A stretch of DNA of 22,378 nt, taken from a virus. Lineage: Duplodnaviria > Heunggongvirae > Uroviricota > Caudoviricetes. The stretch is taken from the IMG/VR virus record IMGVR_UViG_2721755651_000013; one strand, 5' to 3'. A program made the translations under genes and the position numbers. The notes beneath the pieces were generated by a model. That model worked only from the letters and a program-made list of their open reading frames with translations, ran no database searches and had not been told where the DNA came from. This document shows, in pieces, positions 6,055-22,378 of the stretch (positions are counted from its first letter, which is position 1; every line of letters begins with the position of its first letter).

Positions 6055-6215
6055 AGCAAAAAACAAATAGCTACGAGGAATAAAAAAACCACCCATTATG
6101 AAAAAATACCATAAATAATTTTATTCCCATGTGAACAGTTATGAACAGTCGATGAATACTGCCATGCCAACCCTTCACCTTATAACCTTCTGTATTACCT
6201 ATTTTTTTTACCTAA

Positions 6216-6380: not shown

Positions 6381-6400
6381 ACAAACCACTAGGTGCTGAC

Positions 6401-7153
6401 ATGACAATCCCAGAACAGAACAATAACCCGATCGTTGAAATTTCTATCCCTGTTTCGACGCAACAGGCGCTTGAGAAAGTGAATGCCACCAAATCTGCAT
6501 GGCTTGAAGCACGTCGTCAGCAAAAAGCGGCAGCGGATAATATTGCGACAATCCGCCAGCGCCGCGCTGAAATGGAAGCCACGACGAACGCCCTGAATGA
6601 GGAGTGGCGCACGCTATTTCGTGAAAGTCAGGGCGTAGTCTCAAAGGAAATGAAAAAACTGCGCACGGAAATTGCGCTGGGACGAGAAACGCTTGAGGAT
6701 TTTGATGAGCTGCTGGCGGCTCAGGAAAGCGAAAATGCACTTTTGCCGCAGGAGGCTGCGGAATTAGCCGGAAAGTATATCCACGCGCACGACACCCTTG
6801 TGGGTATTCGCGCAAAACAAATCTGGGAAGATTTTATGCAGTCGCATGGAAAAGCACTAATCCAGACACTAAGCCTGCTCAAATCAACAATGGGCAGGGA
6901 AGCCAGCGCAGTTGTCGGTGTGGTGCATTCAGTTAATGACCCGGACACACTGCTGAAAGATTTTATTCATAAACATATCACCAGACCGGCTCTGACTAAC
7001 GATGCGATGCCCGAACAGGACCCCGTGTTTAAACTGGCGGGAGTTGCCCCGGATTATGCGGCCCGTCTGGATTTCAGTAATAAACTCTCTCCAGCAGCTA
7101 TGCATAAAATGAAGGTTCGTCAGGAACGTGCTGAGAAGGAGAAAGCAGTATGA
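6401..7153 (+). CDS. sid: Sid-like capsid size-determination (external scaffold) protein
   Basis: 250 aa (P4 Sid is about 244 aa); first gene after the late promoter; shares the AWL...DFMQ.HG.AL motif with the next ORF, consistent with Sid and Psu being related; AGGTG Shine-Dalgarno. Confidence 0.65.
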   Translation: MTIPEQNNNPIVEISIPVSTQQALEKVNATKSAWLEARRQQKAAADNIATIRQRRAEMEATTNALNEEWRTLFRESQGVVSKEMKKLRTEIALGRETLEDFDELLAAQESENALLPQEAAELAGKYIHAHDTLVGIRAKQIWEDFMQSHGKALIQTLSLLKSTMGREASAVVGVVHSVNDPDTLLKDFIHKHITRPALTNDAMPEQDPVFKLAGVAPDYAARLDFSNKLSPAAMHKMKVRQERAEKEKAV

Positions 7154-7701
7154 TGGCCCGAGTCACTCCAGACCAAGCGCTTATCAGTTTTAGAAATGCC
7201 CGTATTCTGTGGGCTGGACATAGTGAGAGCCGAAAAGCCGTTGAACAACAGATAGAATCACTCCTCACTGCCATGGAAAAACCAGCAGATTATGCTCGAC
7301 AGCTCGAATTACAGCGGGAACATCTGGATGTGCTGAAATGGCAAATTAACTGTGCTGCGCGCGAATGCATTTACTCGCAGCATCAACTGATGGAGGCCTG
7401 CACAGAAGACGCTCTCAGCAATTTTATGCAGGCGAATGGAGCAGCCCTGACATCTGCACTGGCTCCGTTCCTGAAGGGGCGCGGAGGGGTTGACGTTGCG
7501 TCCCGTATATTACGCAATGCTCTGGTTCGCCAGCTGGCAATAACACCGCCTGAAATTGCCGGGGATTATCGTATGATTCTGGATGAATCCGGTGTGATGC
7601 CTGACCCCATGATGGTTCGTGATTGCCAGAGCTCTTACACCCCTGCACAACAACTGCGCTTTCAGCAACGTCTGGATTACATTAACGGCATGCAGGAGTA
7701 A
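7150..7701 (+). CDS. psu: Psu-like polarity suppression / capsid decoration protein
   Basis: 183 aa (P4 Psu about 190 aa); FMQANGAALTSALAPFL and a C-terminal TPAQQ segment resemble what I recall of P4 Psu; ATGA start/stop overlap with sid. Confidence 0.7.
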   Translation: MMARVTPDQALISFRNARILWAGHSESRKAVEQQIESLLTAMEKPADYARQLELQREHLDVLKWQINCAARECIYSQHQLMEACTEDALSNFMQANGAALTSALAPFLKGRGGVDVASRILRNALVRQLAITPPEIAGDYRMILDESGVMPDPMMVRDCQSSYTPAQQLRFQQRLDYINGMQE

Positions 7702-7706
7702 TATTA

Positions 7707-7979
7707 ATGGCACTTAAATGTCCCGAATGCGGTACGACGGCACACGCCAGAACCTCCGCCTATGAAGCACCATCGGTTAAACGCTCATGGTATCAGTGCC
7801 AGAATCTTGAATGTTCCTACACATTTACCGCACTGGAAAGTGTGGATACGATAATCATGAAGCCCCGGCGCAATGAACAGGAATCAGAGAAAGCACAAAT
7901 GCCGGAAAAACAACAGCAAACTCTCAATCGCTATGGCTCCGCGTCAAAGCTGTCAAGCCGTCAGCAAATTCCTGTCTGA
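7707..7979 (+). CDS. delta: Delta/Ogr-family zinc-finger late transcriptional activator
   Basis: N-terminus CPECGTTAHARTS...YQCQNLECSYTF is the C2-C2 Ogr/Delta zinc-finger signature; GGAG Shine-Dalgarno 7 nt upstream. Confidence 0.85.
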   Translation: MALKCPECGTTAHARTSAYEAPSVKRSWYQCQNLECSYTFTALESVDTIIMKPRRNEQESEKAQMPEKQQQTLNRYGSASKLSSRQQIPV

Positions 7980-8000
7980 TTAGCAAAAAAAGCCCACGTA

Positions 8001-8026
8001 ATCCCGGTCCAGTACTGGGATTTTTT
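8001..8026 (+). terminator. Rho-independent terminator of the sid-psu-delta operon
   Basis: atccc...tccagtactgga palindrome...gggat followed by tttttt, about 20 nt after the delta stop. Confidence 0.55.
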
Positions 8027-8052
8027 ACGCCTTTTCCCTGGCTGGCCTGAGA

Positions 8053-8100
8053 GCGCATGAGTGCATGTCTATAGCGCATGAAAACGCATGATTCTCATGC
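8053..8100. repeat. Cluster of CGCATGA / TGCATG / TCATGC repeats (possible cos/terminase or regulator binding array)
   Basis: gcgcatga gtgcatg ... gcgcatga aaa cgcatga ttc tcatgc: five CATG-containing repeat units in 48 bp, in the position where P4 carries cos (between the late operon and int-side cargo). Confidence 0.3.
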
Positions 8101-8332
8101 ACCATTTTTGACGCGAAAGCCCTTGTGTGGTGGCTTCTGAGACGATTTGCGGAATGCATGAAAACCAGTCTGTTAAGCGAAGCGAGCAGGCGTGGGGGGC
8201 TGCGCGCGCTAAGGGGTTAGATTATAAAATATCAAACGCCGGTGAGATCCATTATTGTGGAACCACCCGAAGGAAGTGTAGAGGCGAAAGTACCCAAAAT
8301 AATTTTGCAAATTATTTAGAAATGAACTGAGC

Positions 8333-8358
8333 GCTCGAAACGAAATATAATTTCGAGC
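8333..8358 (-). terminator. Hairpin gctcgaaa-N10-tttcgagc just 3' of the minus-strand cargo operon
   Basis: Perfect 8-bp inverted repeat with 10-nt loop located about 30 nt after the stop of the last cargo ORF (8389); no strong U-tract. Confidence 0.4.
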
Positions 8359-8388
8359 ACCCCAATTAGCAGTTATATTTTTAATGTA

Positions 8389-8955
8389 TTAAACAGGATA
8401 AAAACCAGAGCTTCCATTCTTATTTAAGTTATGGATTTTATTTGCATCATTAATTTTTATTTGGAACGTCGGACCTTTATTCTCAAGAATTACAATCTGG
8501 AAATTATAGTCCCTTTTGATTAATGCGTGATAAAATGAATCACTGAGACTGACGCTATTAACATCCGATAGAGAACCCCCTCTATCTTTATCAAAGTGCG
8601 TCACTAATGGACTATCAAGCACAACAAATCCAATGAATGGATTCCCTTTTCTTGATAAAAATTCCGCAAAGCAAATGGTAAATATAGCATGCATTACTGC
8701 ACGGGTACCTTTACCAAACATTCCTCGGCGTTTCCCATTGATATTAAAGTCATATGTATCTTCGTCAAATCGCACTTTGTTATCTTTAGAATTTTCAAAA
8801 TTTATATCATTCAAAAAGTCTTGCATCGCTATTTCTATATCATACAAATCAGCTACTGTTAAGGAGTCAAAGTCCTCGGCGGAGTATTTAAGTTCGTCAA
8901 CATCATCTTCTTTATCTTGTAATGAAGATAGAATGCTATGTTTTGTGTGATCCAT
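8389..8955 (-). CDS. C-terminal ABC/SMC-type ATPase head segment (putative Walker B/D-loop region) of the cargo ATPase
   Basis: 188 aa; GMFGKGTRAVMHAIF (signature-like) followed by NPFIGFVVLDSPLVTHFD (hydrophobic strand + Asp, Walker-B-like); TAATG stop/start overlap with the upstream ORF; no Shine-Dalgarno; reading frame is open about 20 codons upstream of the ATG. Confidence 0.5.
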   Translation of the reverse strand: MDHTKHSILSSLQDKEDDVDELKYSAEDFDSLTVADLYDIEIAMQDFLNDINFENSKDNKVRFDEDTYDFNINGKRRGMFGKGTRAVMHAIFTICFAEFLSRKGNPFIGFVVLDSPLVTHFDKDRGGSLSDVNSVSLSDSFYHALIKRDYNFQIVILENKGPTFQIKINDANKIHNLNKNGSSGFYPV

Positions 8956-9545
8956 TAAAAGATTGTCTTTATATTCATAAAGTGATTCAAGAGATGAATG
9001 TATTGTTTTATATTTTTATCTTCTAACGTCTTAAAATCACTTTTTTCTGATTGATAAATTTCATTAACATCATTTTTTCTTAACATAATTAATTCATGTT
9101 CGCGAACATTAGATCCGATTGATTCAATTAATCCTTTCAGCTGGCTTTTGATTTTCAATTTTTCTGCATTACACGACAAAAAACAATCATCATATGATAT
9201 TTCATTTTCTTTTTTTTGCGGTGTATTACAGAACTCACAATAAATATCTGCAAAATTATTTAAATAGAAATTCGCCTGTGATACAACATCTATTCTTTGT
9301 AGATCTATAAAGTATTGGTCTTTAAGAAGACTAAATCTTTCAATGAGTAATGATAAGTATTTTTCCCTGTCACTGATTGAATATAATTCATCACTTAACT
9401 CTTTTAATAATTGCTTCTTATCATCAAGTGCATCAACAATACCTTTCAATATATCTTTCGATGATTCAATATCTTGCTCTACTTTCTCAAGTTCTCTTGA
9501 AACAATGACTTGATCATATTCAGGATAAATTAATTGCGCTTTCAA
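8955..9545 (-). CDS. Coiled-coil segment of the cargo SMC-like ATPase (no canonical start; same frame as the upstream ORF, separated by one TAA)
   Basis: 196 aa, highly charged (E/K/D/L-rich) helical heptad-like sequence; ORF-track start is TTG with no usable Shine-Dalgarno spacing; in frame with 9576..10208. Confidence 0.45.
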   Translation of the reverse strand: MKAQLIYPEYDQVIVSRELEKVEQDIESSKDILKGIVDALDDKKQLLKELSDELYSISDREKYLSLLIERFSLLKDQYFIDLQRIDVVSQANFYLNNFADIYCEFCNTPQKKENEISYDDCFLSCNAEKLKIKSQLKGLIESIGSNVREHELIMLRKNDVNEIYQSEKSDFKTLEDKNIKQYIHLLNHFMNIKTIF

Positions 9546-9575
9546 TTCCTCATAAATATTTGCAATTTGATTTTT

Positions 9576-10208
9576 TTAAAAATATCTTGCTTTTTTATTT
9601 GGTTTTTCTGCTAAGGAGTTAGTATCATCTCTCTGAGTTAAAAGGAATTTAAATTCAGACTTTCTTTTTGTCTCCTCGCTAGGAATATCAGAAAGAATTA
9701 ACGACTTCTCAGTTAACACTCTTAATTCATCAATACAAAAAAATTCAAAAACATTATTAAGATTAAATTTATGAAGAGTATTACTTAAGTTTGTTCTTAC
9801 TTTAGCCTCTTTGAAATTCAACCTACCATAAAAGTATGATGAAAAACTCTTTTTAGACGAAGCACTTTTGGAAAAAACCATCAACAGATTAGCTTCACTA
9901 ACATTTTCAATGCTCGAATCATATAATCTGTAATGGGCGCTATCCTGAAGAGACCTCTCAATTGTCATTACCCTACCTTGAAAATTAAATTCCAGATAGG
10001 CTAAATCATAACCTTGAGCATGATCGATATCTTTATTTTTTAGTTTTTCACTCCCTAATAAATATCGAATCAAATAATATATGTATGTTTTTCCAGAGTC
10101 AGAACCACCATATAAAATAGTCAATTTAGAACCAAATTCAATTATAGCATCTAATTTATTGAATCCGGTTACCTTTATTTTTCTGAACGTAAAAAAATTG
10201 TCATTCAT
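9576..10208 (-). CDS. N-terminal ABC/SMC-type ATPase head with Walker A (GGSDSGKT)
   Basis: MNDNFFTFRKIKVTGFNKLDAIIEFGSKLTILYGGSDSGKTYIYYL is the canonical N-terminal strand plus P-loop layout of RecF/SbcC/SMC-like ABC ATPases; start moved to the ATG at 10206..10208, which overlaps the upstream stop (ATGAATGA). Confidence 0.65.
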   Translation of the reverse strand: MNDNFFTFRKIKVTGFNKLDAIIEFGSKLTILYGGSDSGKTYIYYLIRYLLGSEKLKNKDIDHAQGYDLAYLEFNFQGRVMTIERSLQDSAHYRLYDSSIENVSEANLLMVFSKSASSKKSFSSYFYGRLNFKEAKVRTNLSNTLHKFNLNNVFEFFCIDELRVLTEKSLILSDIPSEETKRKSEFKFLLTQRDDTNSLAEKPNKKARYF

Positions 10209-10659
10209 AATTAAATTCCATATCATATTTGCCAATTTTATTTTTTATAATTGATTGCAACTGCTCATCAGGAATATCACTATATAACTTAACCACCAAA
10301 TTTATATTATGCTCCATCTGCGCAACATATTCATTATGTAGAGAATTTGTAAATGCATATGTTTTTTCAGAAGCTTTATATACAAAACCACGATGTGTAT
10401 AAATTTTTGAGGCTAGTTCATAGCCTTGCAACAAAGCCAATGATTCTAAAACAATCTCTCGTTTTAGGGCTAACTGAGCATCTCTACGGGGTATTGGAGG
10501 ATGAAGACTAATCTCTTCAGGTAAAAAATCCTTAAGATTTACTAAAATAAAATCAAAACAAATAAGCCGTTCAAGGCTTAATGAAGAAGGATAAATAGCG
10601 ACGAGCACTTTCGCCATTCGACATGCCACTTCTAAACTTGAATTATAAATTCTAACCAT
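10201..10659 (-). CDS. Small alpha-helical protein, putative middle component (LmuC-like) of a three-component ATPase system
   Basis: 152 aa when started at the ATG at 10657..10659 (TAATG overlap with upstream stop, GGTGAG upstream); located between the nuclease-like ORFs and the ATPase, as in ABC-3C/Lamassu type II loci. Assigned by position and size only. Confidence 0.5.
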   Translation of the reverse strand: MVRIYNSSLEVACRMAKVLVAIYPSSLSLERLICFDFILVNLKDFLPEEISLHPPIPRRDAQLALKREIVLESLALLQGYELASKIYTHRGFVYKASEKTYAFTNSLHNEYVAQMEHNINLVVKLYSDIPDEQLQSIIKNKIGKYDMEFNYE

Positions 10660-11276
10660 TATCTCACCGTCCAAATTACTTCACCATCATTAACCAAATG
10701 ATGGCATATTCCTTTTTTATCATTTGCTTCACATATTTTTGATAGTACTGAATGTGCAATTGGTGTCAGAACAGCCTGCTTCAAGACTGCATTACACCTA
10801 ATAAATGCATAATTATGGTCTTCATAAAAGACGGGTTCAATTGAAGATGAAATGTAACATTTCAATGCTTTGAATACATCATCTTTAAATACTTCGCGGA
10901 CAAAAACCTCAAGCGAAGATGCAAAATAAAAATCATTTCTACTATTATTAAAGTGTCGTCTGTATGGATCATCAAGCTCTAAGAAAGAACTATAAGTTTT
11001 ATTTCCATGCTCTGAATAGGCTTGAAGCAGTGCATTAACATATACAGACTCTTTTTTTGAATTGTATGTTGGAATTTCATTTGGAGGGATTCTCACGACA
11101 TACAGCTCGTTAAAGTACTTAAAATAAAGGTGTGTATTTGCAATATCATTTAAAATCAATGATAAGGGTAGAGAGTAAAAAATACTAAAATCAAAATCCT
11201 CAATATATTTTTTTATTTCATCATCTAATGGAATATCAATCTTTTTAGTTATTTTTTTGAAATTGCTGAATCCCAT
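10659..11276 (-). CDS. Hypothetical protein; probably the C-terminal part of the effector, reachable by a -1 shift from 11249..11665
   Basis: 205 aa; only one Met (the start) and no Shine-Dalgarno; overlaps the upstream ORF by 28 nt in the -1 frame across an A7 tract. Confidence 0.5.
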   Translation of the reverse strand: MGFSNFKKITKKIDIPLDDEIKKYIEDFDFSIFYSLPLSLILNDIANTHLYFKYFNELYVVRIPPNEIPTYNSKKESVYVNALLQAYSEHGNKTYSSFLELDDPYRRHFNNSRNDFYFASSLEVFVREVFKDDVFKALKCYISSSIEPVFYEDHNYAFIRCNAVLKQAVLTPIAHSVLSKICEANDKKGICHHLVNDGEVIWTVR

Positions 11277-11665
11277 GAATCAAGGACTGCTTTTTTAAGC
11301 TCGTTTTTATTTTTCAATAAATTAGAAAATGTAGTAGATAAATCATAGGGTGCCACAAAAAAGTACTTCTGAGGGATGGGATAATCACCATTCAGAGTAA
11401 AATAGATAAGTTTTCCAAACTCAACTACAACATCAGAGAACCCTAAACTTTTTTTGTACAGTTTGCATTGATAATTATCCCAAGAATAACCTTCTACGTT
11501 AGGATCCGATTTATATCCAACAACGTCTCTACCTTTATCTCCAGCTCCTCCCAAACGTTCGCTCCACGGGTAATCATCTGATTTACAGACAATAAGCCAA
11601 TCATGGACAAATACCTCCCATTGTTCATCATCCCATGTCAATATTTCCGAAAGTGGTTGAGACAC
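11249..11665 (-). CDS. Mrr-like PD-(D/E)xK nuclease domain protein (putative effector N-terminal domain)
   Basis: 138 aa; WEVFVHDWL...GGAGDKGRDVVGY...YQCKLY matches the E ... G-D-x-G-x-D ... Q-x-K pattern of Mrr-type restriction-endonuclease catalytic domains; GTG start with AAGGAG 7 nt upstream, embedded in the 3' end of int. Confidence 0.6.
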   Translation of the reverse strand: MSQPLSEILTWDDEQWEVFVHDWLIVCKSDDYPWSERLGGAGDKGRDVVGYKSDPNVEGYSWDNYQCKLYKKSLGFSDVVVEFGKLIYFTLNGDYPIPQKYFFVAPYDLSTTFSNLLKNKNELKKAVLDSWDSAISKK

Positions 11666-11668
11666 AAA

Positions 11669-12850
11669 TTAACTCCTTTTTAGTCTTTCAAATATCAAAT
11701 TACTGTACCAGTCCATCATAGACTTCCTTCCACTAAAATATTGAGCATGGTTATAAGTCCCCCTAATAGAATTTTTATCTACATGAGCCAACTGGATTTC
11801 AATCCAAGCACTCTCAAAACCTTGCTCATGCAGGATTGTAGAAAGGGTATGACGAAAACCATGTCCAGTGACTTTTCCTCCATACCCAATACGCTTAATG
11901 GCTTGATTTATACTCGCTTCGCTCATTGGCCTATTCGGATCGTTCCGCCCTGGAAAAACATAACGATAGTTCCCTGTCATGATCTTGAGTTCATTGAGTA
12001 AATCTACCGCTTGAGATGATAAGGGCACAAGATGTGGCCTACGCATTTTCATCCTTTCAGCAGGAATTTCCCAAATAGCGTTATCCAGATCAAATTCTTG
12101 CCATAATGCCGCGCGTAATTCGATGGTTCTCACACCCGTAATCATCAGTAATTTCGTGGCTATCTGGACAAGCTTACTCCCGGAGTAACCCTCTAAGGCA
12201 CGTAGAAAATCAGGTATCTCATCAGCTTTTAGGAATGGGAAATGATTGGATTGGTGTACTTCGAGAGCGCTGGAGAGATCAGCCGCAGGATTGTACTCCG
12301 CCCTACCCGTTGCAATTGCGTAGCGAAACACTTCGGAGCAACGCTGCCGCACTTTGCGCATTTTCTCCAACGCACCACGTTTCTCAATTTTACGCAGAAC
12401 GTTCAGCAGCTCTAGCGGTTTAATCTCTCCCACAGGCCTTGTTCCGACATAAGGAAAAATGTCGTTCTTAAACGCTTCCATGATGTCTGATGCATATCCC
12501 GCCGACCATTTAGCAGATTTAAGTTGATGCCACTCTCTGGCTATCTTTTCGAAGGCGTTCTCTGACTCTGTTTGCATAGCTAGCTTTTGCTCTTTTCGAA
12601 CCTCACTAGGGTTCTTTCCTTCTGCCACAAGTTTTCGAGCTTCATCACGACGGGAACGAGCATCGGCAAGGGTGATCGTTGGGTAAACACCAAGCGAGAT
12701 CATTTTGGGTTTGCCGGCATAGCGATAGCGGAACCGCCAACTCTTGCTTCCATTAGGTTCTATAAGTAATGACAACCCTAGCCCATCTCCAAATGTATAG
12801 GCTTTAGCTTCAGGCTTAGCGCGGCGAATCTGCATATCGTTTAAAGGCAT
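11669..12850 (-). CDS. int: P4-type tyrosine integrase
   Basis: N-terminus MPLNDMQIRRAKPEAKAY...DGLGLSLLIEPNGSKSWRFRYR is the P4-integrase N-terminal signature; C-terminal HGFRHT...Y catalytic motifs; start moved to the ATG at 12848..12850 (393 aa); adjacent to a tRNA-derived att. Confidence 0.9.
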   Translation of the reverse strand: MPLNDMQIRRAKPEAKAYTFGDGLGLSLLIEPNGSKSWRFRYRYAGKPKMISLGVYPTITLADARSRRDEARKLVAEGKNPSEVRKEQKLAMQTESENAFEKIAREWHQLKSAKWSAGYASDIMEAFKNDIFPYVGTRPVGEIKPLELLNVLRKIEKRGALEKMRKVRQRCSEVFRYAIATGRAEYNPAADLSSALEVHQSNHFPFLKADEIPDFLRALEGYSGSKLVQIATKLLMITGVRTIELRAALWQEFDLDNAIWEIPAERMKMRRPHLVPLSSQAVDLLNELKIMTGNYRYVFPGRNDPNRPMSEASINQAIKRIGYGGKVTGHGFRHTLSTILHEQGFESAWIEIQLAHVDKNSIRGTYNHAQYFSGRKSMMDWYSNLIFERLKRS

Positions 12851-12897
12851 GTGTATAGGAATCCAGACCGAACAGGAACATATACACAATCCTATAC
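12851..12897. repeat. 10-bp inverted repeat GTGTATAGGA-N27-TCCTATACAC immediately upstream of int
   Basis: Exact inverted repeat seen directly, with a third TATACACA copy between; a likely int promoter/operator or arm-type site. Confidence 0.4.
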
Positions 12898-13012
12898 ACA
12901 TTCAGTACCGGATTCTACTGGATGGTTACGGACTACTATGGACTTAAAAGAATAAAAAATGTTATAAATCAGAGATTTTATGGACTAATACGGACGTTTG
13001 AGGAAGTTGAGA

Positions 13013-15200: not shown

Positions 15201-15432
15201 ACCCGATCATCAAACGAAACATAAAATTAGCTCACATTATGAGGAAAGGTATCTTTTTGCGCTATGTAAATTCAAAGGGTTAGCCTCATTTTCCCGATGG
15301 CTTTCTCAACACTACTAGTTGTGAGCCCTTGCAATGTTCATTAATATACGTCTCACAAATAATTCACAGATATTGCAAAATGGATATTACTGAACCGCCC
15401 CGGGTTTCCTGGAGAGTGTTTTATCTGTGAAC

Positions 15433-16319
15433 TCAGGCTGCCAGATCATCGTTTCCGATGGAAGCATAATAAGCTTTTTCTGCTTCTGCCGGAGGAGTAT
15501 GGCCCAGCCTTCCCAGCAATCGTCGATTGTTATACCAGTCCACCCACGTTAGTGTGGCCAGTTCCACTTCTGCACGGTTTTTCCAGCTCTTACGGTGTAT
15601 TACCTCCGCTTTGTAAAGACCATTGATGCTCTCAGCCATCGCGTTGTCATACGAGTCGCCTGTACTCCCTGTTGATGCCAGTAATCCGGCTTCTTTTAGT
15701 CGCTCCGTATAGGCCAGTGACACATACTGAGAGCCTTTATCGCTGTGATGGATGGTGCCAGACGGACGACGGGCCCACAACGCCTGCTCCAGCGCATCCA
15801 GCACGAATGTCGTTTCCATAGACGATGAGACCCGCCACCCCACGATGTATCCGGCAAACACATCAATGATAAACGCCACATAGACGAAGCCCTGCCATGT
15901 GCTGACGTAAGTAAAATCAGCCACCCACAGCTGGTCAGGTCGTTCTGCCACGAACTGACGGTTTACGCGGTCGCCTGCGGCAACGGCTTTCCGGCTGATG
16001 GTCGTACGGACCTTTTTACCCCGGAGAACACCGGCAAGTCCCATAACCGCCATGAGACGTGCCACTGTACATCTGGCCACCCTGATTCCTTCCCGTAACA
16101 ACTGACGCCAGACTTTACGCACACCGTACACCTGATGATTTTCATCGTATACGCGCTGTATCTCTCTCTTCAGCCAGTCGTCGTGCTGCGCACGGGCACT
16201 GCGTTTATCCGGATGATGTCGCTGTTGCTGACAATGGTAATACGTTGACGGGGCAATATGCAGTTCGCTGCATACCGGTCCGACCCCGTACTGCTCACGC
16301 AGCTTATCCAGCAGTGGCA

Positions 16320-16323
<4 letters not shown>
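15433..16323 (-). CDS. IS3-family transposase OrfB (DDE integrase core)
   Basis: 296 aa with the characteristic IS3 OrfB layout; overlaps orfA in the -1 frame across an A6 tract (TGGAAAAAATGATG), the usual frameshift window. Confidence 0.9.
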
Positions 16324-17466
<1,143 letters not shown>

Positions 17467-17523
17467 ATCTTCAAGTGGTAAGCATAAACCGCAGCACGAT
17501 CTTGCATACGACGTGCTACGGTT

Positions 17524-18078
17524 TCATTTATCTCCGGCCGGAAACTTCTTATACAGTGTCGATACACCAACATCATAGATGATCGCTACCTTCTGGCGAG
17601 GAATTCCTGCTGCAATTAATCGTCCGGCCTGCGCCCATTGTTCTGGTGTAAGTTTGGGACGACGTCCACCAATTCGTCCCTGTGCGCGAGCAGCTTCCAG
17701 TCCAGCTTTTGTTCGTTCAACAATCAGTTCTCGTTCCATTTCAGCCAGGGCCCCCATCACATGAAAGAAAAAGCGCCCCATTGGGGTACTGGTATCAATA
17801 GCATCCGTCAGGCTGCGAAAATTAACGCCACGTTCGCGCAACTCCTCAACCAGAATGACCAGATGCCGCATACTGCGCCCCAGCCGATCCAGTTTCCAGA
17901 CAACCAGAGTGTCACCTGCCGATAATGTCCTGAGCAGTTTTTTCAGTCCCGGCCTTTCGGACTTTGTACCGCTTATCTTGTCTTCAAAAATCAGCTCGCA
18001 TCCTGCACAGTTCAGCGCATTACGTTGTAGATCTGTGTTCTGGTCATTTGTTGACACACGTACATAGCCAATAAGCAT
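17524..18078 (-). CDS. pin: Serine-recombinase DNA invertase of the Pin/Gin/Hin/Cin family
   Basis: MLIGYVRVSTNDQNTDLQRNAL... with catalytic Ser and C-terminal HTH; matches what I recall of e14 Pin; 184 aa when started at the ATG at 18076..18078. Confidence 0.9.
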   Translation of the reverse strand: MLIGYVRVSTNDQNTDLQRNALNCAGCELIFEDKISGTKSERPGLKKLLRTLSAGDTLVVWKLDRLGRSMRHLVILVEELRERGVNFRSLTDAIDTSTPMGRFFFHVMGALAEMERELIVERTKAGLEAARAQGRIGGRRPKLTPEQWAQAGRLIAAGIPRQKVAIIYDVGVSTLYKKFPAGDK

Positions 18079-18104
18079 GGTAGATCTCCCTGACAAAAGC
18101 AGGA

Positions 18105-18602
18105 ATGATGCCATTTGCTCGTTATTTCTGCATTTTCATAAACGTTGGTTTGGGAGAAGGTGCTCCAGCTATTGGCGTTCCGTTCTTCTGGCCGTCCGCT
18201 GCAATGCCAAATACTGTAATCGACAGCTGGTCCTGTATGGTGTTTTTGAAGTTCAACGGCGCGAAATTCTCTGCCACTGATTATCCTGTGCTGGCGAAAG
18301 TGTTTCCTTCGCTGGTATTACCTGAAGCCCGCGGTGATTTCATTCGTATCTGGGATGACGGGCGAGGTGCAGACGGTGGTCGCGAATTATTAAGCTGGCA
18401 GGCAGCTACAAACTTTTCTCAGTTTGCCGGGAATATAGGCGAAGGTGCGGGACACGCAATTAACTTTCATGATGGCATCGCCGGAAATCAGCCAGGATTT
18501 TCACGATTTAATTTCACCAGTAACTCTGTGGGTGATGGTGTGAATTTTGTTGCAGTCAGACCGCGAAATATTGCATTTAACTTTCTGGTGAGGGCTAAAT
18601 AA
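18105..18602 (+). CDS. Tail-fibre C-terminal variable segment (Sv/StfE'-like gene segment inside an invertible region)
   Basis: ...KFSATDYPVLAKVFPSLVLPEARGDFIRIWDDGRGADGGR...NIAFNFLVRAK is the conserved tail-fibre tip motif of Mu S / e14 Stf / T4 gp37-type fibres; no own promoter or start expected for a gene segment. Confidence 0.65.
   Translation: MMPFARYFCIFINVGLGEGAPAIGVPFFWPSAAMPNTVIDSWSCMVFLKFNGAKFSATDYPVLAKVFPSLVLPEARGDFIRIWDDGRGADGGRELLSWQAATNFSQFAGNIGEGAGHAINFHDGIAGNQPGFSRFNFTSNSVGDGVNFVAVRPRNIAFNFLVRAK
18133..18158. other. Putative invertase crossover site (gix/hix/pix-like), TTTTCATAAACGTTGGTTTGGGAGAA
   Basis: 26-bp imperfect dyad with half-sites ending AAAC / GTTT around a central dinucleotide, adjacent to the pin start, resembling hix/gix sites as I recall them. 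Confidence 0.4.
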
Positions 18603-19195
18603 TGAAACCTGTTTTTGATGAAAATGGGCTGGCTACAGTGCCGGGCGATATGCGTTGTTTTTATTATGATGCTGAAACATCTGAGTATACGGGCTGGTCT
18701 GATGAATATATTAATACTGGCGTAAGTATGCCCGCCTGTTCCACTGGTATTGACCCTGGCGAAAACATTCCGGGAAGAGTGGCAGTATTTACAGGTAAGG
18801 GATGGAGCCATGAAGAAGACCATCGCAATGAGACTGTTTACTCAATCGAAAATGGCGCAGCTGTTACAGTGGATTATATCGGTGCCATCAAAGACGGTTA
18901 TGTCACGATTTCACCGTTAACGCCATACGATAAATGGGATGGTGAGAAATGGGTGACAGACACTGAGGCACAACACAGTGCCGCAGTAGACGCGGCAGAA
19001 GCACAGCGCCAATCACTGATTGATGCAGCAATGGCTTCCATTAGTCTGATTCAGCTGAAGTTACAGGCCGGACGGAAACTGACTCAGGCAGAAACAACCC
19101 GACTTAACGCCGTGCTGGATTACATTGACGCGGTGACGGCAACAGATACCAGCACCGCGCCGGATGTCATCTGGCCTGAACTGCCGGAGGCGTAG
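18602..19195 (+). CDS. tfa: Tail fibre assembly protein (Tfa/U-like)
   Basis: 197 aa, TAATG coupling to the fibre segment; C-terminal ...LDYIDAV...DTS.APDVIWPELP motif typical of Tfa chaperones. Confidence 0.75.
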   Translation: MKPVFDENGLATVPGDMRCFYYDAETSEYTGWSDEYINTGVSMPACSTGIDPGENIPGRVAVFTGKGWSHEEDHRNETVYSIENGAAVTVDYIGAIKDGYVTISPLTPYDKWDGEKWVTDTEAQHSAAVDAAEAQRQSLIDAAMASISLIQLKLQAGRKLTQAETTRLNAVLDYIDAVTATDTSTAPDVIWPELPEA

Positions 19196-19619
19196 GCCAT
19201 TCAATATCTGGCGCACCGGAAGTATCGACCAGCTCCAGTGCGTCCAGATAATCCAGCCACAAATTATATTGCGTCAGTTCGTCACCTTTCAGACGACCAA
19301 TAGCCGCTTTACCGGGCCATTGCTTACTGTTCATGTATTCGTTGGCCTGGTTAATTAGTAGCTGTCTTTCTGATTCAGTAATTTCAATAAGCTCTTCATG
19401 CGTGGGTGGAGGAATATCTGCCCACGCAGGCAGCCCATCATCTCCGGCAATACGGATTTTTCCTTGTGGCGGTTCAGCCATAAACTCACTGATAATATTT
19501 TGATTTACTTCCTTAGCGTCTGATAAATCCCATCCCTCTGATTTATATTTATCAATCATATCCACAGGGAAAAAAGCATTATGCCTTGCGCTATAAACAT
19601 ATTCGTCCATATAAATCAC
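19167..19619 (-). CDS. tfa: Alternative tail fibre assembly protein (Tfa'/U'-like) on the opposite strand
   Basis: 150 aa with the same C-terminal Tfa motif (LWLDYLDAL...DTSGAPDIEWPTPP), tail-to-tail with the other tfa as in invertible G/P segments; its partner fibre segment is missing (IS copy 2 starts at 19674). Confidence 0.65.
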   Translation of the reverse strand: MIYMDEYVYSARHNAFFPVDMIDKYKSEGWDLSDAKEVNQNIISEFMAEPPQGKIRIAGDDGLPAWADIPPPTHEELIEITESERQLLINQANEYMNSKQWPGKAAIGRLKGDELTQYNLWLDYLDALELVDTSGAPDIEWPTPPAVQAR

Positions 19620-19727
19620 CCTGAATAAAATTACTCACCAACAGCCCACCAACTGTAATTCATCGATACCGTGTGAACCGCCCCGGGTTTCCTGGAGACT
19701 AAACTCCCTGAGAAAGAGGTAAACAGG

Positions 19728-20054
19728 ATGACTAAAAATACTCGTTTTTCCCCCGAAGTCCGTCAGCGGGCGATTCGTATGGTTCTGGAAAGTCAGGATG
19801 AATATGACTCACAGTGGGCGGCAATTTGTTCCATTGCCCCAAAGATTGGCTGTACGCCGGAGACTCTGCGTGTCTGGGTTCGCCAGCATGAGCGGGATAC
19901 CGGGGGCGGTGATGGTGGGCTCACCAGCGCTGAACGTCAGCGTCTGAAAGAGCTGGAACGTGAAAATCGTGAACTGCGCCGCAGTAACGATATCCTTCGC
20001 CAGGCTTCCGCTTATTTTGCGAAGGCGGAGTTCGACCGCCTCTGGAAAAAATGA
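19728..20054 (+). CDS. IS3-family transposase OrfA
   Basis: Identical 108-aa protein to 16320..16646. Confidence 0.9.
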
Positions 20055-20941
20055 TGCCACTGCTGGATAAGCTGCGTGAGCAGTACGGGGTCGGACCGGT
20101 ATGCAGCGAACTGCATATTGCCCCGTCAACGTATTACCATTGTCAGCAACAGCGACATCATCCGGATAAACGCAGTGCCCGTGCGCAGCACGACGACTGG
20201 CTGAAGAGAGAGATACAGCGCGTATACGATGAAAATCATCAGGTGTACGGTGTGCGTAAAGTCTGGCGTCAGTTGTTACGGGAAGGAATCAGGGTGGCCA
20301 GATGTACAGTGGCACGTCTCATGGCGGTTATGGGACTTGCCGGTGTTCTCCGGGGTAAAAAGGTCCGTACGACCATCAGCCGGAAAGCCGTTGCCGCAGG
20401 CGACCGCGTAAACCGTCAGTTCGTGGCAGAACGACCTGACCAGCTGTGGGTGGCTGATTTTACTTACGTCAGCACATGGCAGGGCTTCGTCTATGTGGCG
20501 TTTATCATTGATGTGTTTGCCGGATACATCGTGGGGTGGCGGGTCTCATCGTCTATGGAAACGACATTCGTGCTGGATGCGCTGGAGCAGGCGTTGTGGG
20601 CCCGTCGTCCGTCTGGCACCATCCATCACAGCGATAAAGGCTCTCAGTATGTGTCACTGGCCTATACGGAGCGACTAAAAGAAGCCGGATTACTGGCATC
20701 AACAGGGAGTACAGGCGACTCGTATGACAACGCGATGGCTGAGAGCATCAATGGTCTTTACAAAGCGGAGGTAATACACCGTAAGAGCTGGAAAAACCGT
20801 GCAGAAGTGGAACTGGCCACACTAACGTGGGTGGACTGGTATAACAATCGACGATTGCTGGGAAGGCTGGGCCATACTCCTCCGGCAGAAGCAGAAAAAG
20901 CTTATTATGCTTCCATCGGAAACGATGATCTGGCAGCCTGA
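20051..20941 (+). CDS. IS3-family transposase OrfB
   Basis: Identical 296-aa protein to 15433..16323. Confidence 0.9.
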
Positions 20942-21109
20942 GTTCACAGATAAAACACTCTCCAGGAAACCCGGGGCGGTTCATAACCAATTGTATTTAT
21001 TTTAAAATTAATAGGTGCAACTCACTAAACAACGCAATTCTGATCTCTCGATCACCTCCCAAGCCACACAACCCTGCAAAAAATAAATCTATATAAAAAA
21101 CATACAGAT

Positions 21110-21180
21110 AACCATCTGCGGTGATAAATTATCTCTGGCGATGTTGACACAAATACCACTAGCGGTGATACCAAGCACAT
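21110..21180 (+). promoter_or_regulatory. Lambda-like OL3-OL2-OL1 operators and PL promoter
   Basis: AACCATCTGCGGTGATA (21110..21126), TATCTCTGGCGATGTTG (21130..21146), TACCACTAGCGGTGATA (21154..21170) match lambda OL 17-mers with 1-2 changes each; -35 TTGACA at 21144..21149, -10 GATACC at 21167..21172. Confidence 0.8.
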
Positions 21181-21211
21181 CAGCAGGACGCACTAACCAC
21201 CATGAAGGTGA

Positions 21212-21242
21212 TGCTCTTAAAAATTAAGCCCTGAAGAAGGGC
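21212..21242 (+). promoter_or_regulatory. nutL-like antitermination site (boxA TGCTCTTA, boxB hairpin GCCCTGAAGAAGGGC)
   Basis: boxB is a perfect 5-bp stem with GAAGA loop, identical to lambda boxB as I recall it; boxA has one mismatch. Confidence 0.75.
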
Positions 21243-21399
21243 AGCATTCAAAGCAGAAGGCTTTGGTGTGTGTGATACGAAACGAAGCATTGGCCGGAAG
21301 TGCGAATCCGGATTAGCAGCCAATGTGCCATTGCGGGGTGTTTTCGTTCAGGACTACGACTCCCACACACAACCAAAGCTAACTAACAGGAGAATCCAG

Positions 21400-21513
21400 A
21401 TGGATGCACAAACACGCCGCCGCGAACGTCGCGCAGAGAAACAGGCTCAATGGAAAGCAGATCGGATTCTGGCTTCAACATTTCGCAGGAATGCAACTAA
21501 GAGACATTACTGA
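21400..21513 (+). pseudogene. N: Truncated lambda N-like antiterminator (first ~21 codons [20 protein letters not shown], then unrelated sequence and stop)
   Basis: AGGAG 8 nt upstream of ATG 21400; arginine-rich boxB-binding motif intact; similarity to N ends near 21462 and the ORF stops at 21511..21513. Confidence 0.7.
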
Positions 21514-22378
21514 ATCAAAAATTTATTCAGCAATGCAGAAAATGACGAACCGGCGTCATGAGGAAAACTGGAAACTCAGGGCAGAAGCATGCAGAAAAAA
21601 AGGGAAACCTGTTCCAGAATACACGCCAAAACCAGCGTCCGTTGCAACGAAGGCTACGCATCTTTCATTTATAAAGGCCCTGCTAAGAGCCGCAGAGCGT
21701 GAATGGAAAATGCTCGATAAGGCACCAATTATTAAAGTGCCTCAACCAAAGAATAAACGGATCCGCTGGCTGGAGCCCCATGAAGCACAAAGGCTGATTG
21801 ATGAATGTCCGGAGCCATTAAAGTCTGTTGTTGAATTTGCACTGGCAACAGGCTTAAGACGCTCGAACATCATCAACCTTGAATGGCAACAAATAGATAT
21901 GCAGCGCCGGGTGGCATGGATAAACCCGGAAGAGAGTAAATCAAACCGCGCAATTGGCGTTGCGCTGAATGATACTGCATGTCGCGTATTGAAAAAACAA
22001 ATCGGTAATCATCACCGTTGGGTATTTGTGTACAAGGAAAGCTGTACCAAACCAGACGGAACGAAAGCGCCAACAGTAAGGAAGATGCGGTATGACGCAA
22101 ACACAGCCTGGAAAGCGGCGCTGAGACGGGCTGGTATTGATGATTTCAGATTTCACGACTTGAGACACACCTGGGCAAGTTGGCTGGTTCAAGCCGGAGT
22201 CCCGTTGTCAGTGTTACAGGAAATGGGAGGCTGGGAGTCTATCGAAATGGTTCGTCGATATGCTCACCTTGCACCTAATCACCTTACCGAACACGCACGG
22301 CAAATAGACTCGATCCTGAACCCATCGGTCCCAAATTTGTCCCAGTCAAAAAATAAGGAAGGTACTAATGATGTGTAA
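21491..22378 (+). CDS. Tyrosine recombinase / phage integrase family protein, apparently 5'-truncated at the junction with the N' remnant
   Basis: C-terminal [14 protein letters not shown]...[15 protein letters not shown] has the R...HxxR...Y catalytic signature; the ORF-track start at 21404 lies in the alternate frame of the N' remnant, so the first plausible ATG is 21491; no N-terminal arm-binding domain. Confidence 0.65.

Follow-up and report, generated by a model that had tools for sequence, protein, structure and literature searches.

A probably frozen remnant of an e14-type Pin tail-fibre inversion switch in the cryptic prophage Sp1 of E. coli O157:H7

The window analysed here (the whole stretch of 22,378 nt) corresponds to the Sp1/Sp2 prophage region linked to thrW in E. 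coli O157:H7, with 100% identity to strain 319. On its minus strand, at 17524-18078, lies pin, an intact gene for a serine DNA invertase of 184 aa, which was identified by its Pfam domains (Resolvase, E 8e-52; HTH_7, E 1e-15), by comparison with PinE and by its RefSeq entry (pinE, WP_000904979.1). The ORF extends to 18114, and the K-12-type start MLIGYVRVS is found at 18078. The product is 96.7% identical to K-12 PinE over 184 aa and retains the catalytic Ser9 (in MLIGYVRVSTNDQ); a resolvase domain with its active-site serine and a C-terminal HTH are thus encoded directly beside the segment described below, and the conservation suggests that Pin may still be active. In the Gin/Hin/Cin/Pin systems a Fis-dependent recombinational enhancer is located in the 5' part of the invertase gene. 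The corresponding part of pin (17840-18078, minus strand; the first ~240 nt) aligns near-identically with K-12 pinE, shows conservation with Mu gin as well, and would contain the putative enhancer, which may be intact; a loose Fis-motif scan of this region gave no clean pair of sites.

Upstream of pin, a pin-proximal 26-bp crossover site (pix) was identified at 18133-18158 (TTTTCATAAACG TT GGTTTGGGAGAA, with the central dinucleotide TT at 18145-18146). It is identical to the e14 pin-proximal site at 26/26 positions, is unique in the window and had 0 matches in 100 shuffles, and the same scan recovers both annotated boundaries of the Mu G segment, at 17/26. The core pattern AAACSNNSGTTT has a single occurrence in the 22-kb window. 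A second crossover site, which the preliminary description had proposed to look for, was absent from the whole 22,378-nt window, including the sequence past 19673, with up to 8 mismatches allowed. One match with 9 mismatches (of 26) at 6122, at a distance of 12 kb, was rejected as a chance hit; the AAACC..GGTTT core is missing from it.

On the plus strand, a StfE-type leader (MMPFARYFCIFINV, 18105-18146, from the ORF list) reads into the crossover site; it has homologues in the K-12 StfE and Sakai YfdL leaders, and its ATG codons (18105 and 18108) have poor Shine-Dalgarno spacing. It is followed at 18147-18602 by the variable C-terminal segment of a tail fibre (StfE-type, collar-like, plus strand), which lacks the constant N-terminal part. 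This tip corresponds to residues 114-264 (the C-terminal 151 aa) of the Sakai fibre ECs_0280 with 100% identity, and is 41% identical to K-12 StfE; its PHROG matches are confined to the C-terminal ends of tail-fibre families. A Pfam search of the tip returned nothing at E 0.001, its identity coming from the PHROG, StfE and ECs_0280 comparisons; RefSeq labels it "phage tail protein, missing N-terminus" and handles it as a pseudogene. The classical model would make the tip promoterless and probably silent; a promoter and terminator scan of 17400-19750 gave counts at shuffle expectation, a chance-level result that carries no weight either way on this point.

Two tail-fibre assembly genes follow, overlapping by 29 nt at their 3' ends. 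The first (18602-19195, plus strand; 197 aa, Caudo_TAP E 2e-27) is of the TfaE type, 65.5% identical to K-12 TfaE, and pairs with the tip at 18147-18602; the second (19167-19610, minus strand; 147 aa, Caudo_TAP E 3e-30) is of the TfaP/YfdK type, 53.6% identical to K-12 TfaP, and is the partner of a deleted tip. All that remains of that second, gp53-like tip is a 43-nt stub (19631-19673, minus strand) comprising the last 13 codons (TVSMNYSWWAVGE) and the stop codon, identical to the 3' end of a 236-aa fibre gene in strain 86-24. Both tfa genes and one tip are complete. The pin gene, the gix/hix-like site at 18133..18158, the variable C-terminal fibre segment, its pin-adjacent orientation and the two tail-to-tail tfa genes had all been recognized in the preliminary description, and each of these assignments agrees with the comparisons given here.

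Two IS629 copies flank this region. Copy 1 (15391-16700, minus strand) is a simple insertion with a TAC/TAC target-site duplication (TSD), which splits a LEM-3-like GIY-YIG gene (Pfam PF22945) after codon 3; the gene minus its first 3 codons continues at 16701-17466 (plus strand), in the position that mcrA occupies next to pinE in e14. Copy 2 (19674-20983, plus strand; 1310 bp, starting TGAACCGCCCC...) has the size and terminal inverted repeats of IS629 (IS1203-type, IS3 family; RefSeq, IS3-like IS1203 family) and contains ORFs of 108 aa and 296 aa, for which RefSeq annotates a programmed frameshift. The copies are 99.8% identical over 1310 bp, inverted, and bracket 2973 bp, and one might see in them the ends of a new module (GIY-YIG', pin and the switch remnant) that could invert or transpose by homologous recombination or composite transposition, not by Pin. 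We give this structural possibility almost no credence: both copies are present in only one of 5,426 genomes, so there is no population evidence for it, such an inversion would have no evident effect on regulation, and the switch features would be left unexplained.

The sequence around copy 2 shows a deletion that took part of the Sp1 switch. Comparison with strain 86-24, which is without this IS, showed that window positions 16701-19674 correspond to 9001-11974 of its sequence L001 and window positions 20986-22378 to 15805-17197, copy 2 standing in place of L001 11975-15804 (3.83 kb, from the fibre gene through cI to an int fragment). The losses comprise the distal crossover site, what remained of the second tip, the constant fibre part, the genes P', O', cII, cro and cI, and one more gene. 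The flanks of copy 2 (left GTG, right TAA) form no 3-bp TSD. Because 3.83 kb are missing and no target duplication is present, a simple IS insertion is ruled out as the cause of the loss, and copy 2 marks an IS-associated deletion. In DEC4E, a simple IS629 insertion is found at the position of copy 2, in the same orientation relative to the 147-aa tfa gene, with a GTG/GTG duplication and with the rest of the tip still there, which suggests that the insertion came first and the deletion afterwards. The DEC4E insertion could also be an independent event at an IS629 hot spot, and the deletion might be the product of recombination between two IS629 copies in direct orientation. The right inverted repeat of the DEC4E element differs by 1 nt from that of the window copy.

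The intact allele is found in other O157 genomes. In 86-24, the sequence beyond window position 19674 runs into the complete 236-aa fibre gene, which contains a second, inverted site in frame (at ...ALQNLGLGE|). An inverted repeat of 20 nt (95%; L001 10440-10459 and 12290-12309) brackets 1830 nt there, and the partner of the window site is the inverted site at L001 12291-12316, within the 3.83 kb that the window lacks. Both 86-24 and Sakai have the constant N-terminal part of the fibre with its promoter, which the window has lost through the deletion. In Sakai and EDL933 the same segment is inverted exactly at both sites (in the alignment of 86-24 with Sakai, the strand changes precisely at the two sites), and therefore both orientations occur in nature. 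Sakai, EDL933, EC4115, TW14359 and many other genomes match an in silico junction of the constant part with the window's tip at 100% over 693 nt, and 156 genomes covered at least 80% of it (orientation B). The opposite junction (orientation A, that of 86-24 and others) was found on the fibre side in 87 genomes; its pin-side junction was found in 124, which leaves about 27 genomes without an explanation. Both orientations were found for the intact allele only, and the nine genomes bearing the deletion all have the same orientation and are collinear at the locus. These are independent complete genomes that share the structure, which rules out an assembly artefact as the source of the window's orientation. 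Across O157:H7, the intact Sp1 allele, found both ways, behaves as a live phase-variable locus. Its host, Sp1, is a lambda-like prophage remnant in which no other tail genes accompany even the ancestral fibre gene.

In the intact form, Pin together with Fis and the cis enhancer would exchange strands at two inverted 26-bp sites, one adjoining pin and the other inside the small fibre gene after its constant N-terminal part (~114 codons). A flip of the ~1.87-kb segment would then join the constant part to one or the other C-terminal tip, and behind each tip lies a tfa chaperone gene of its own. In the window, IS629 lies 43 nt before the distal tip's stop codon, and what lay beyond it is missing as far as the int fragment; the single site left would leave Pin without a recombination partner, and the segment would be locked with the StfE-type tip beside pin. 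The expressed fibre gene is gone. Since there is no second site in 22 kb, the switch is probably frozen. The preliminary description had reached the same view and had attributed the loss of the second tip and site to the IS copy starting at 19674; the loss of the site and of the far end stands in the light of 86-24, but the tip was not removed entirely (the 43-nt stub), and the frozen state is consistent with the single orientation of the nine deletion genomes. That the locus is the Sp1 Pin segment, its distal site lost with an IS629-associated deletion and the segment now locked, is the best explanation of all features taken together, and very probably correct.

It might be argued that the switch is still active, the intact Pin joining the site at 18133-18158 to a cryptic or distant site outside and producing a different, possibly large inversion. 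Wild-type invertases of the Gin/Hin/Cin/Pin family act only when both sites and the enhancer share one supercoiled domain in a defined topology, no other match in 22 kb is better than the coreless one with 9/26 mismatches 12 kb off, and the deletion-bearing genomes are collinear at the locus; although invertases of the Gin family tolerate degenerate sites and can act on the segments of other prophages (PMC12529663), we consider continued switching extremely unlikely.

The remnant might also have a function of its own, if the leader and StfE-type tip (18105-18602) and Tfa were expressed alone and acted on the host surface, e.g., as a receptor-masking anti-phage factor like StfE2/StfP2 of e14, in which case the IS629 event would have locked one phenotype. 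The ORF has ATG codons and its leader is conserved with K-12 StfE and Sakai YfdL; furthermore, Kirigo et al. 2025 (PMC12529663) reported that adsorption of T2 is blocked by e14 segment products, an effect abolished by deletion of either stf gene, and the analogous e14 ORF has been reported to yield an active protein (PMC12529663). However, the active e14 protein came from the inverted state (PMC12529663), the homologous tip of which (gp53-like/StfP-type) is deleted here, and the chance-level promoter scan, the poor Shine-Dalgarno spacing and the RefSeq pseudogene call also speak against expression. In other strains IS629 is found in pin, in the 197-aa tfa gene and in the fibre gene, and these multiple insertions point to relaxed selection. 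Both a functional remnant as such and its role in receptor masking are very unlikely in our view.

Across strains, IS629 has disabled the Sp1 switch by at least three routes (site deletion, pin disruption and tfa disruption). In a broader reading, IS629 would repeatedly target the switch (the 3' end of the fibre gene, pin, the 197-aa tfa gene and the position beside the GIY-YIG gene), and the locking or destruction of a surface-modulating switch could be selectable; on the analogy of e14 StfE2/StfP2 and T2 adsorption, the truncated allele would be a fixed phage-susceptibility phenotype and not neutral decay, and the intact pin could serve other segments in trans. We regard this combination as very improbable. 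If the reported T-even adsorption block of e14 extended to Sp1, its alleles could differ in phage sensitivity.

Returning to the locked Sp1 segment, one of the closest counterparts is the locus in Sakai Sp1, ECs_0280-ECs_0284 (fibre, tfaE, yfdK, yfdL and pinE), which is the same locus in its intact form. The pin gene, the site, the tip and both tfa genes are identical, and the position next to thrW/proA is the same. In contrast to the window, Sakai retains the two sites as well as the constant part, and its segment lies in the opposite orientation, so that the window's tip is fused to the constant part; relative to Sakai, the window is short of 3.83 kb and contains two IS629 copies. The sequence is identical to a locus already public and annotated in O157:H7 genomes.

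The invertible P segment of e14, with the order stfP-tfaP-tfaE-stfE-pinE, is said to have been described by Plasterk and van de Putte in 1985 and by Mehta et al. in 2004. It is inverted by PinE, and both orientations coexist in cultures (PMC4272514; PMC12529663). The window shares with it the gene order and orientations, a nuclease gene beyond pin and the leader (MPFA.YF.IFINVGLGE), in addition to the Pin (96.7%), site (26/26), TfaE (65%), TfaP (54%) and StfE tip (41%) identities. Unlike in e14, IS629 has taken the place of the distal site, the constant part and most of the second tip, all of them deleted. The tips have diverged as alleles, pin has a GIY-YIG gene beside it instead of mcrA, and the host element is the thrW-integrated Sp1 instead of the icd-integrated e14.

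The layout of the Mu G or e14 P segment, which had been suggested for this region at the outset, matches in the invertase, the pin-proximal site, the tip, its tfa gene and the opposed tfa gene. With the Mu G segment and Gin (S-U/S'-U') and the P1 C segment and Cin, the window shares a serine invertase adjoining the segment, 26-bp sites with an AAACC-NN-GGTTT core and alternative C-terminal fibre ends that each have an assembly gene behind them (the sequence comparison was made with Mu only). The window site matches gix at 17/26, and the invertase gene is conserved in its 5' part. Mu differs in that it is a functional phage, its fibre (S, 504 aa) is full-length and its segment measures 3 kb; its tip and tfa sequences are unrelated or distant.

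As to the deletion, the general IS629 and prophage papers found in a search of the O157 literature name Sp1 but not the inversion of its segment or the IS629 deletion in the switch. Ooka et al. in 2009 reportedly described small deletions associated with IS629/IS1203 in O157:H7 prophages, and IEE, on which Kusumoto et al. are said to have reported in 2011, has been linked to such deletions. The window shares with them the 1310-bp IS3-family element, a flank without TSD and adjacent missing prophage DNA; several independent insertions fall in one small region here, and nothing distinctive differs. An IS629 site in Sp1, IS.29, was listed by Rump et al. 2011 (PMC3271280). The consequence beyond annotation is small, the locus being homologous to a site-specific inversion system that is among the oldest known: the region 17524-19673 is the probably frozen remnant of the e14-type Pin tail-fibre inversion switch of Sp1, a system already known, and its loss to IS629 is an ordinary, catalogued type of prophage decay.

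The pin gene (17524-18078, minus strand) encodes a 184-aa protein in which Pfam recognises Resolvase and HTH_7 domains; it shares 96.7% identity with K-12 PinE and has the active-site serine (MLIGYVRVS). The crossover site (18133-18158), a 26-mer TTTTCATAAACG-TT-GGTTTGGGAGAA that is unique in the window and had 0 matches in 100 shuffles, equals the e14 pin-proximal site at 26/26 positions in a mismatch-tolerant scan, and scanning phage Mu with it recovered exactly the two annotated G-segment boundaries (17/26). The frame crossing the site encodes the C-terminal tail-fibre segment, or tip (...NVGLGE|GAPAIGVPFFWPS...), which from the site onward matches the last 151 residues of the Sakai fibre ECs_0280 at 100% identity and K-12 StfE at 41%; Pfam gave no match for the tip, and in several PHROG tail-fibre families it aligns with the C-terminal end. 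Two tfa genes, tfa197 (18602-19195, plus strand, 65.5% identical to TfaE) and tfa147 (19167-19610, minus strand, 53.6% identical to TfaP), both Caudo_TAP, overlap by 29 nt at their 3' ends, and IS629 copy 2 (1310 bp) starts at 19674. All these elements are real and lie where the preliminary description placed them, and the e14/Mu-type layout that it proposed agrees with the PinE identity, the site matches in e14 and Mu and the TfaE and TfaP homologues.

When 16700-19700 was compared with complete E. coli genomes by megablast, O157:H7-type strains matched over the full length at 100% identity, strain 319 being the only one that also has the upstream IS junction. Deposited sequence identical to the locus already carries annotation, as pinE, tail fibre assembly proteins and a transposase of the IS1203 family. 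The Sakai annotation places the region in prophage Sp1, a remnant of lambda-like type that lies at thrW beside proA and is followed by the P4-like Sp2, and the finding therefore sits inside a well-known cryptic prophage.

Most O157:H7 genomes match the window just to 19674 and then run into a gene for a "gp53-like domain-containing protein", which in strain 86-24 (locus L001) is a complete fibre gene of 236 aa, its first ~114 codons (ending ...TALQNLGLGE) being the constant part that lies outside the invertible segment. At the end of the constant part is the second crossover site (L001 12291-12316, CTCTTCAAAACC-TT-GGTTTGGGAGAA), inverted relative to the pin-proximal one (20 nt 95% complementary, with 1830 nt separating the arms). 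Window 16701-19674 aligns with L001 9001-11974 and window 20986-22378 with L001 15805-17197, and the IS lies between these two blocks; therefore IS629 has taken the place of 3.83 kb, which comprised the remainder of the tip, the distal crossover site, the constant part, fragments of P and O, cII, cro, cI and one more gene. The flanks of IS629 copy 2 are GTG (left) and TAA (right), and this missing target duplication fits an IS-associated deletion, as expected. The far end had been described as cut by IS629: the distal site and second tip are indeed missing at the IS, but the event was a 3.83-kb deletion plus IS, not a simple cut, and the second tip, said to be missing, is nearly all gone but survives as a 43-nt stub (19631-19673, TVSMNYSWWAVGE-stop).

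An inversion junction was built in silico by fusing the 86-24 constant part at the central TT to the window tip, and its full 693 nt were found without a difference in Sakai, EDL933, EC4115, TW14359, Xuzhou21 and many other genomes; those covering at least 80% of it number 156. The other junction, in which the gp53-like tip follows the constant part, was present in 87 genomes and the pin-side junction as in the window in 124. Aligned with Sakai (locus L003), 86-24 has collinear flanks, and exactly the stretch from one site to the other lies on the opposite strand (L001 10435-12313 versus L003 7329-9207). Both orientations, bounded by the crossover sites, are therefore present in the O157:H7 population, which is the signature of Pin-mediated inversion (through one flip or several), and the population data demonstrate that the intact Sp1 allele is bistable. 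The two counts for the 86-24 orientation (124 and 87) disagree; the IS deletion accounts for 9-10 of the gap, and other fibre-side truncations may make up the remainder. In intact Sp1 the fibre gene immediately adjoins a truncated replication gene P (L001 12641-12960; L003 6690-7001), and the switch and this small fibre gene are the sole morphogenesis genes remaining, yet both orientations persist.

With up to 8 mismatches allowed, no other crossover site was found in the 22,378 nt, and the core pattern AAACSNNSGTTT occurs nowhere in the window except at 18140-18151. A lone match with 9 mismatches at 6122 was dismissed, as it is without the conserved AAACC/GGTTT core. With a single site Pin inversion is impossible and the segment is locked, as had been proposed (a probably frozen switch without a second site). 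The arrangement is the same in 9/9 deletion-bearing genomes, consistent with a frozen state.

The tfa147/IS629 junction occurs in 10 genomes, 9 of which have the deletion. In the tenth, DEC4E (locus L005), IS629 occupies exactly the same nucleotide position and points the same way relative to tfa147. It is a simple insertion there, with GTG duplication; beyond it the remainder of the tip, the crossover site and the start of pin are retained, and the segment is turned the other way, as in Sakai. The economical reading is probably one of three steps: IS629 would have entered the 3' end of the tip, the segment carrying it would still have been able to flip, and a deletion would have run outward from the IS right end while the segment lay as it does in 86-24. 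Conceivably the DEC4E insertion is instead independent, at an IS629 hot spot, and its right inverted repeat does differ by one base. Further, independent insertions are known from other O157 strains: DEC4E has a second IS629 inside pin (L005 7976-9285), and strain 110 has one inside tfa197 (L007 4783-6090). Thus at least four IS629 positions fall within a stretch of about 4 kb at the Sp1 switch, and such repeated hits in a small region argue for relaxed selection on the switch. IS629 copy 1 (15391-16700, minus strand), inserted simply with TSD TAC, interrupts a LEM-3-like GIY-YIG gene (16701-17466) after codon 3 (ATGGATATTAC|IS|TACTGAG), a junction seen in strain 319 alone among 5,426 complete E. 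coli genomes. Copies 1 and 2 (19674-20983) are mutually inverted and enclose 2973 bp that contain GIY-YIG', pin and what is left of the switch; their sequences differ by 3 nt, every one of them within the left inverted repeat (GGAAATCC versus GGGTTTCC); from their arrangement, homologous inversion or composite-transposon behaviour would be possible.

In the Gin/Hin/Cin/Pin paradigm, Pin dimers bind both sites, the invertasome is assembled by a Fis-bound enhancer within the 5' portion of the gene for the invertase, and strands are exchanged at the central dinucleotide; the Sp1 switch, modelled on this paradigm and on e14, would act likewise. The enhancer is probably intact because pin hardly differs from K-12 pinE over its first ~240 nt, a stretch that is also conserved in Mu gin; a loose scan of this 5' region for Fis motifs gave no clean pair of sites. 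The tip, described as promoterless, is putatively so; a consensus promoter scan stayed at chance level. The pin-proximal ORF contains ATG codons of its own and shares a conserved leader with StfE and YfdL, but its Shine-Dalgarno spacing is poor. According to a 2025 paper (PMC12529663), PinQ, PinR and PinE all act on the e14 P segment, and its inversion joins the leader to the StfP tip in a protein (StfE2) that keeps T2 from adsorbing. If this result extends to Sp1, the window would be locked in a non-inverted-type state and the tip for a StfE2-like protein lost; a retained function of the remnant seems unlikely.

Beyond pin, the window encodes the GIY-YIG nuclease-domain protein (16701-17466), and the e14 counterpart position (L004 6347-7180) is occupied by the McrA type IV restriction nuclease; a "nuclease next to pin" slot is possibly conserved. 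Sp2 (window 6388-13000) carries psu, ogr/delta-like and sid-like genes, and beside its integrase is a cluster of RefSeq-named "ABC-three component system" proteins, together with two hypothetical genes and an AAA ATPase; it has the look of a defence hotspot carried by a satellite.

The reading as a decayed Pin invertible tail-fibre switch is supported, with four refinements (deletion plus IS, the 43-nt stub, a bistable intact allele and a tip that is only putatively promoterless). In its working the Sp1 locus resembles the e14 P segment, and its ancestor was a member of the same kind; in the window two defining features are absent, the second site and the constant part, and it is therefore a remnant and not a functional member.
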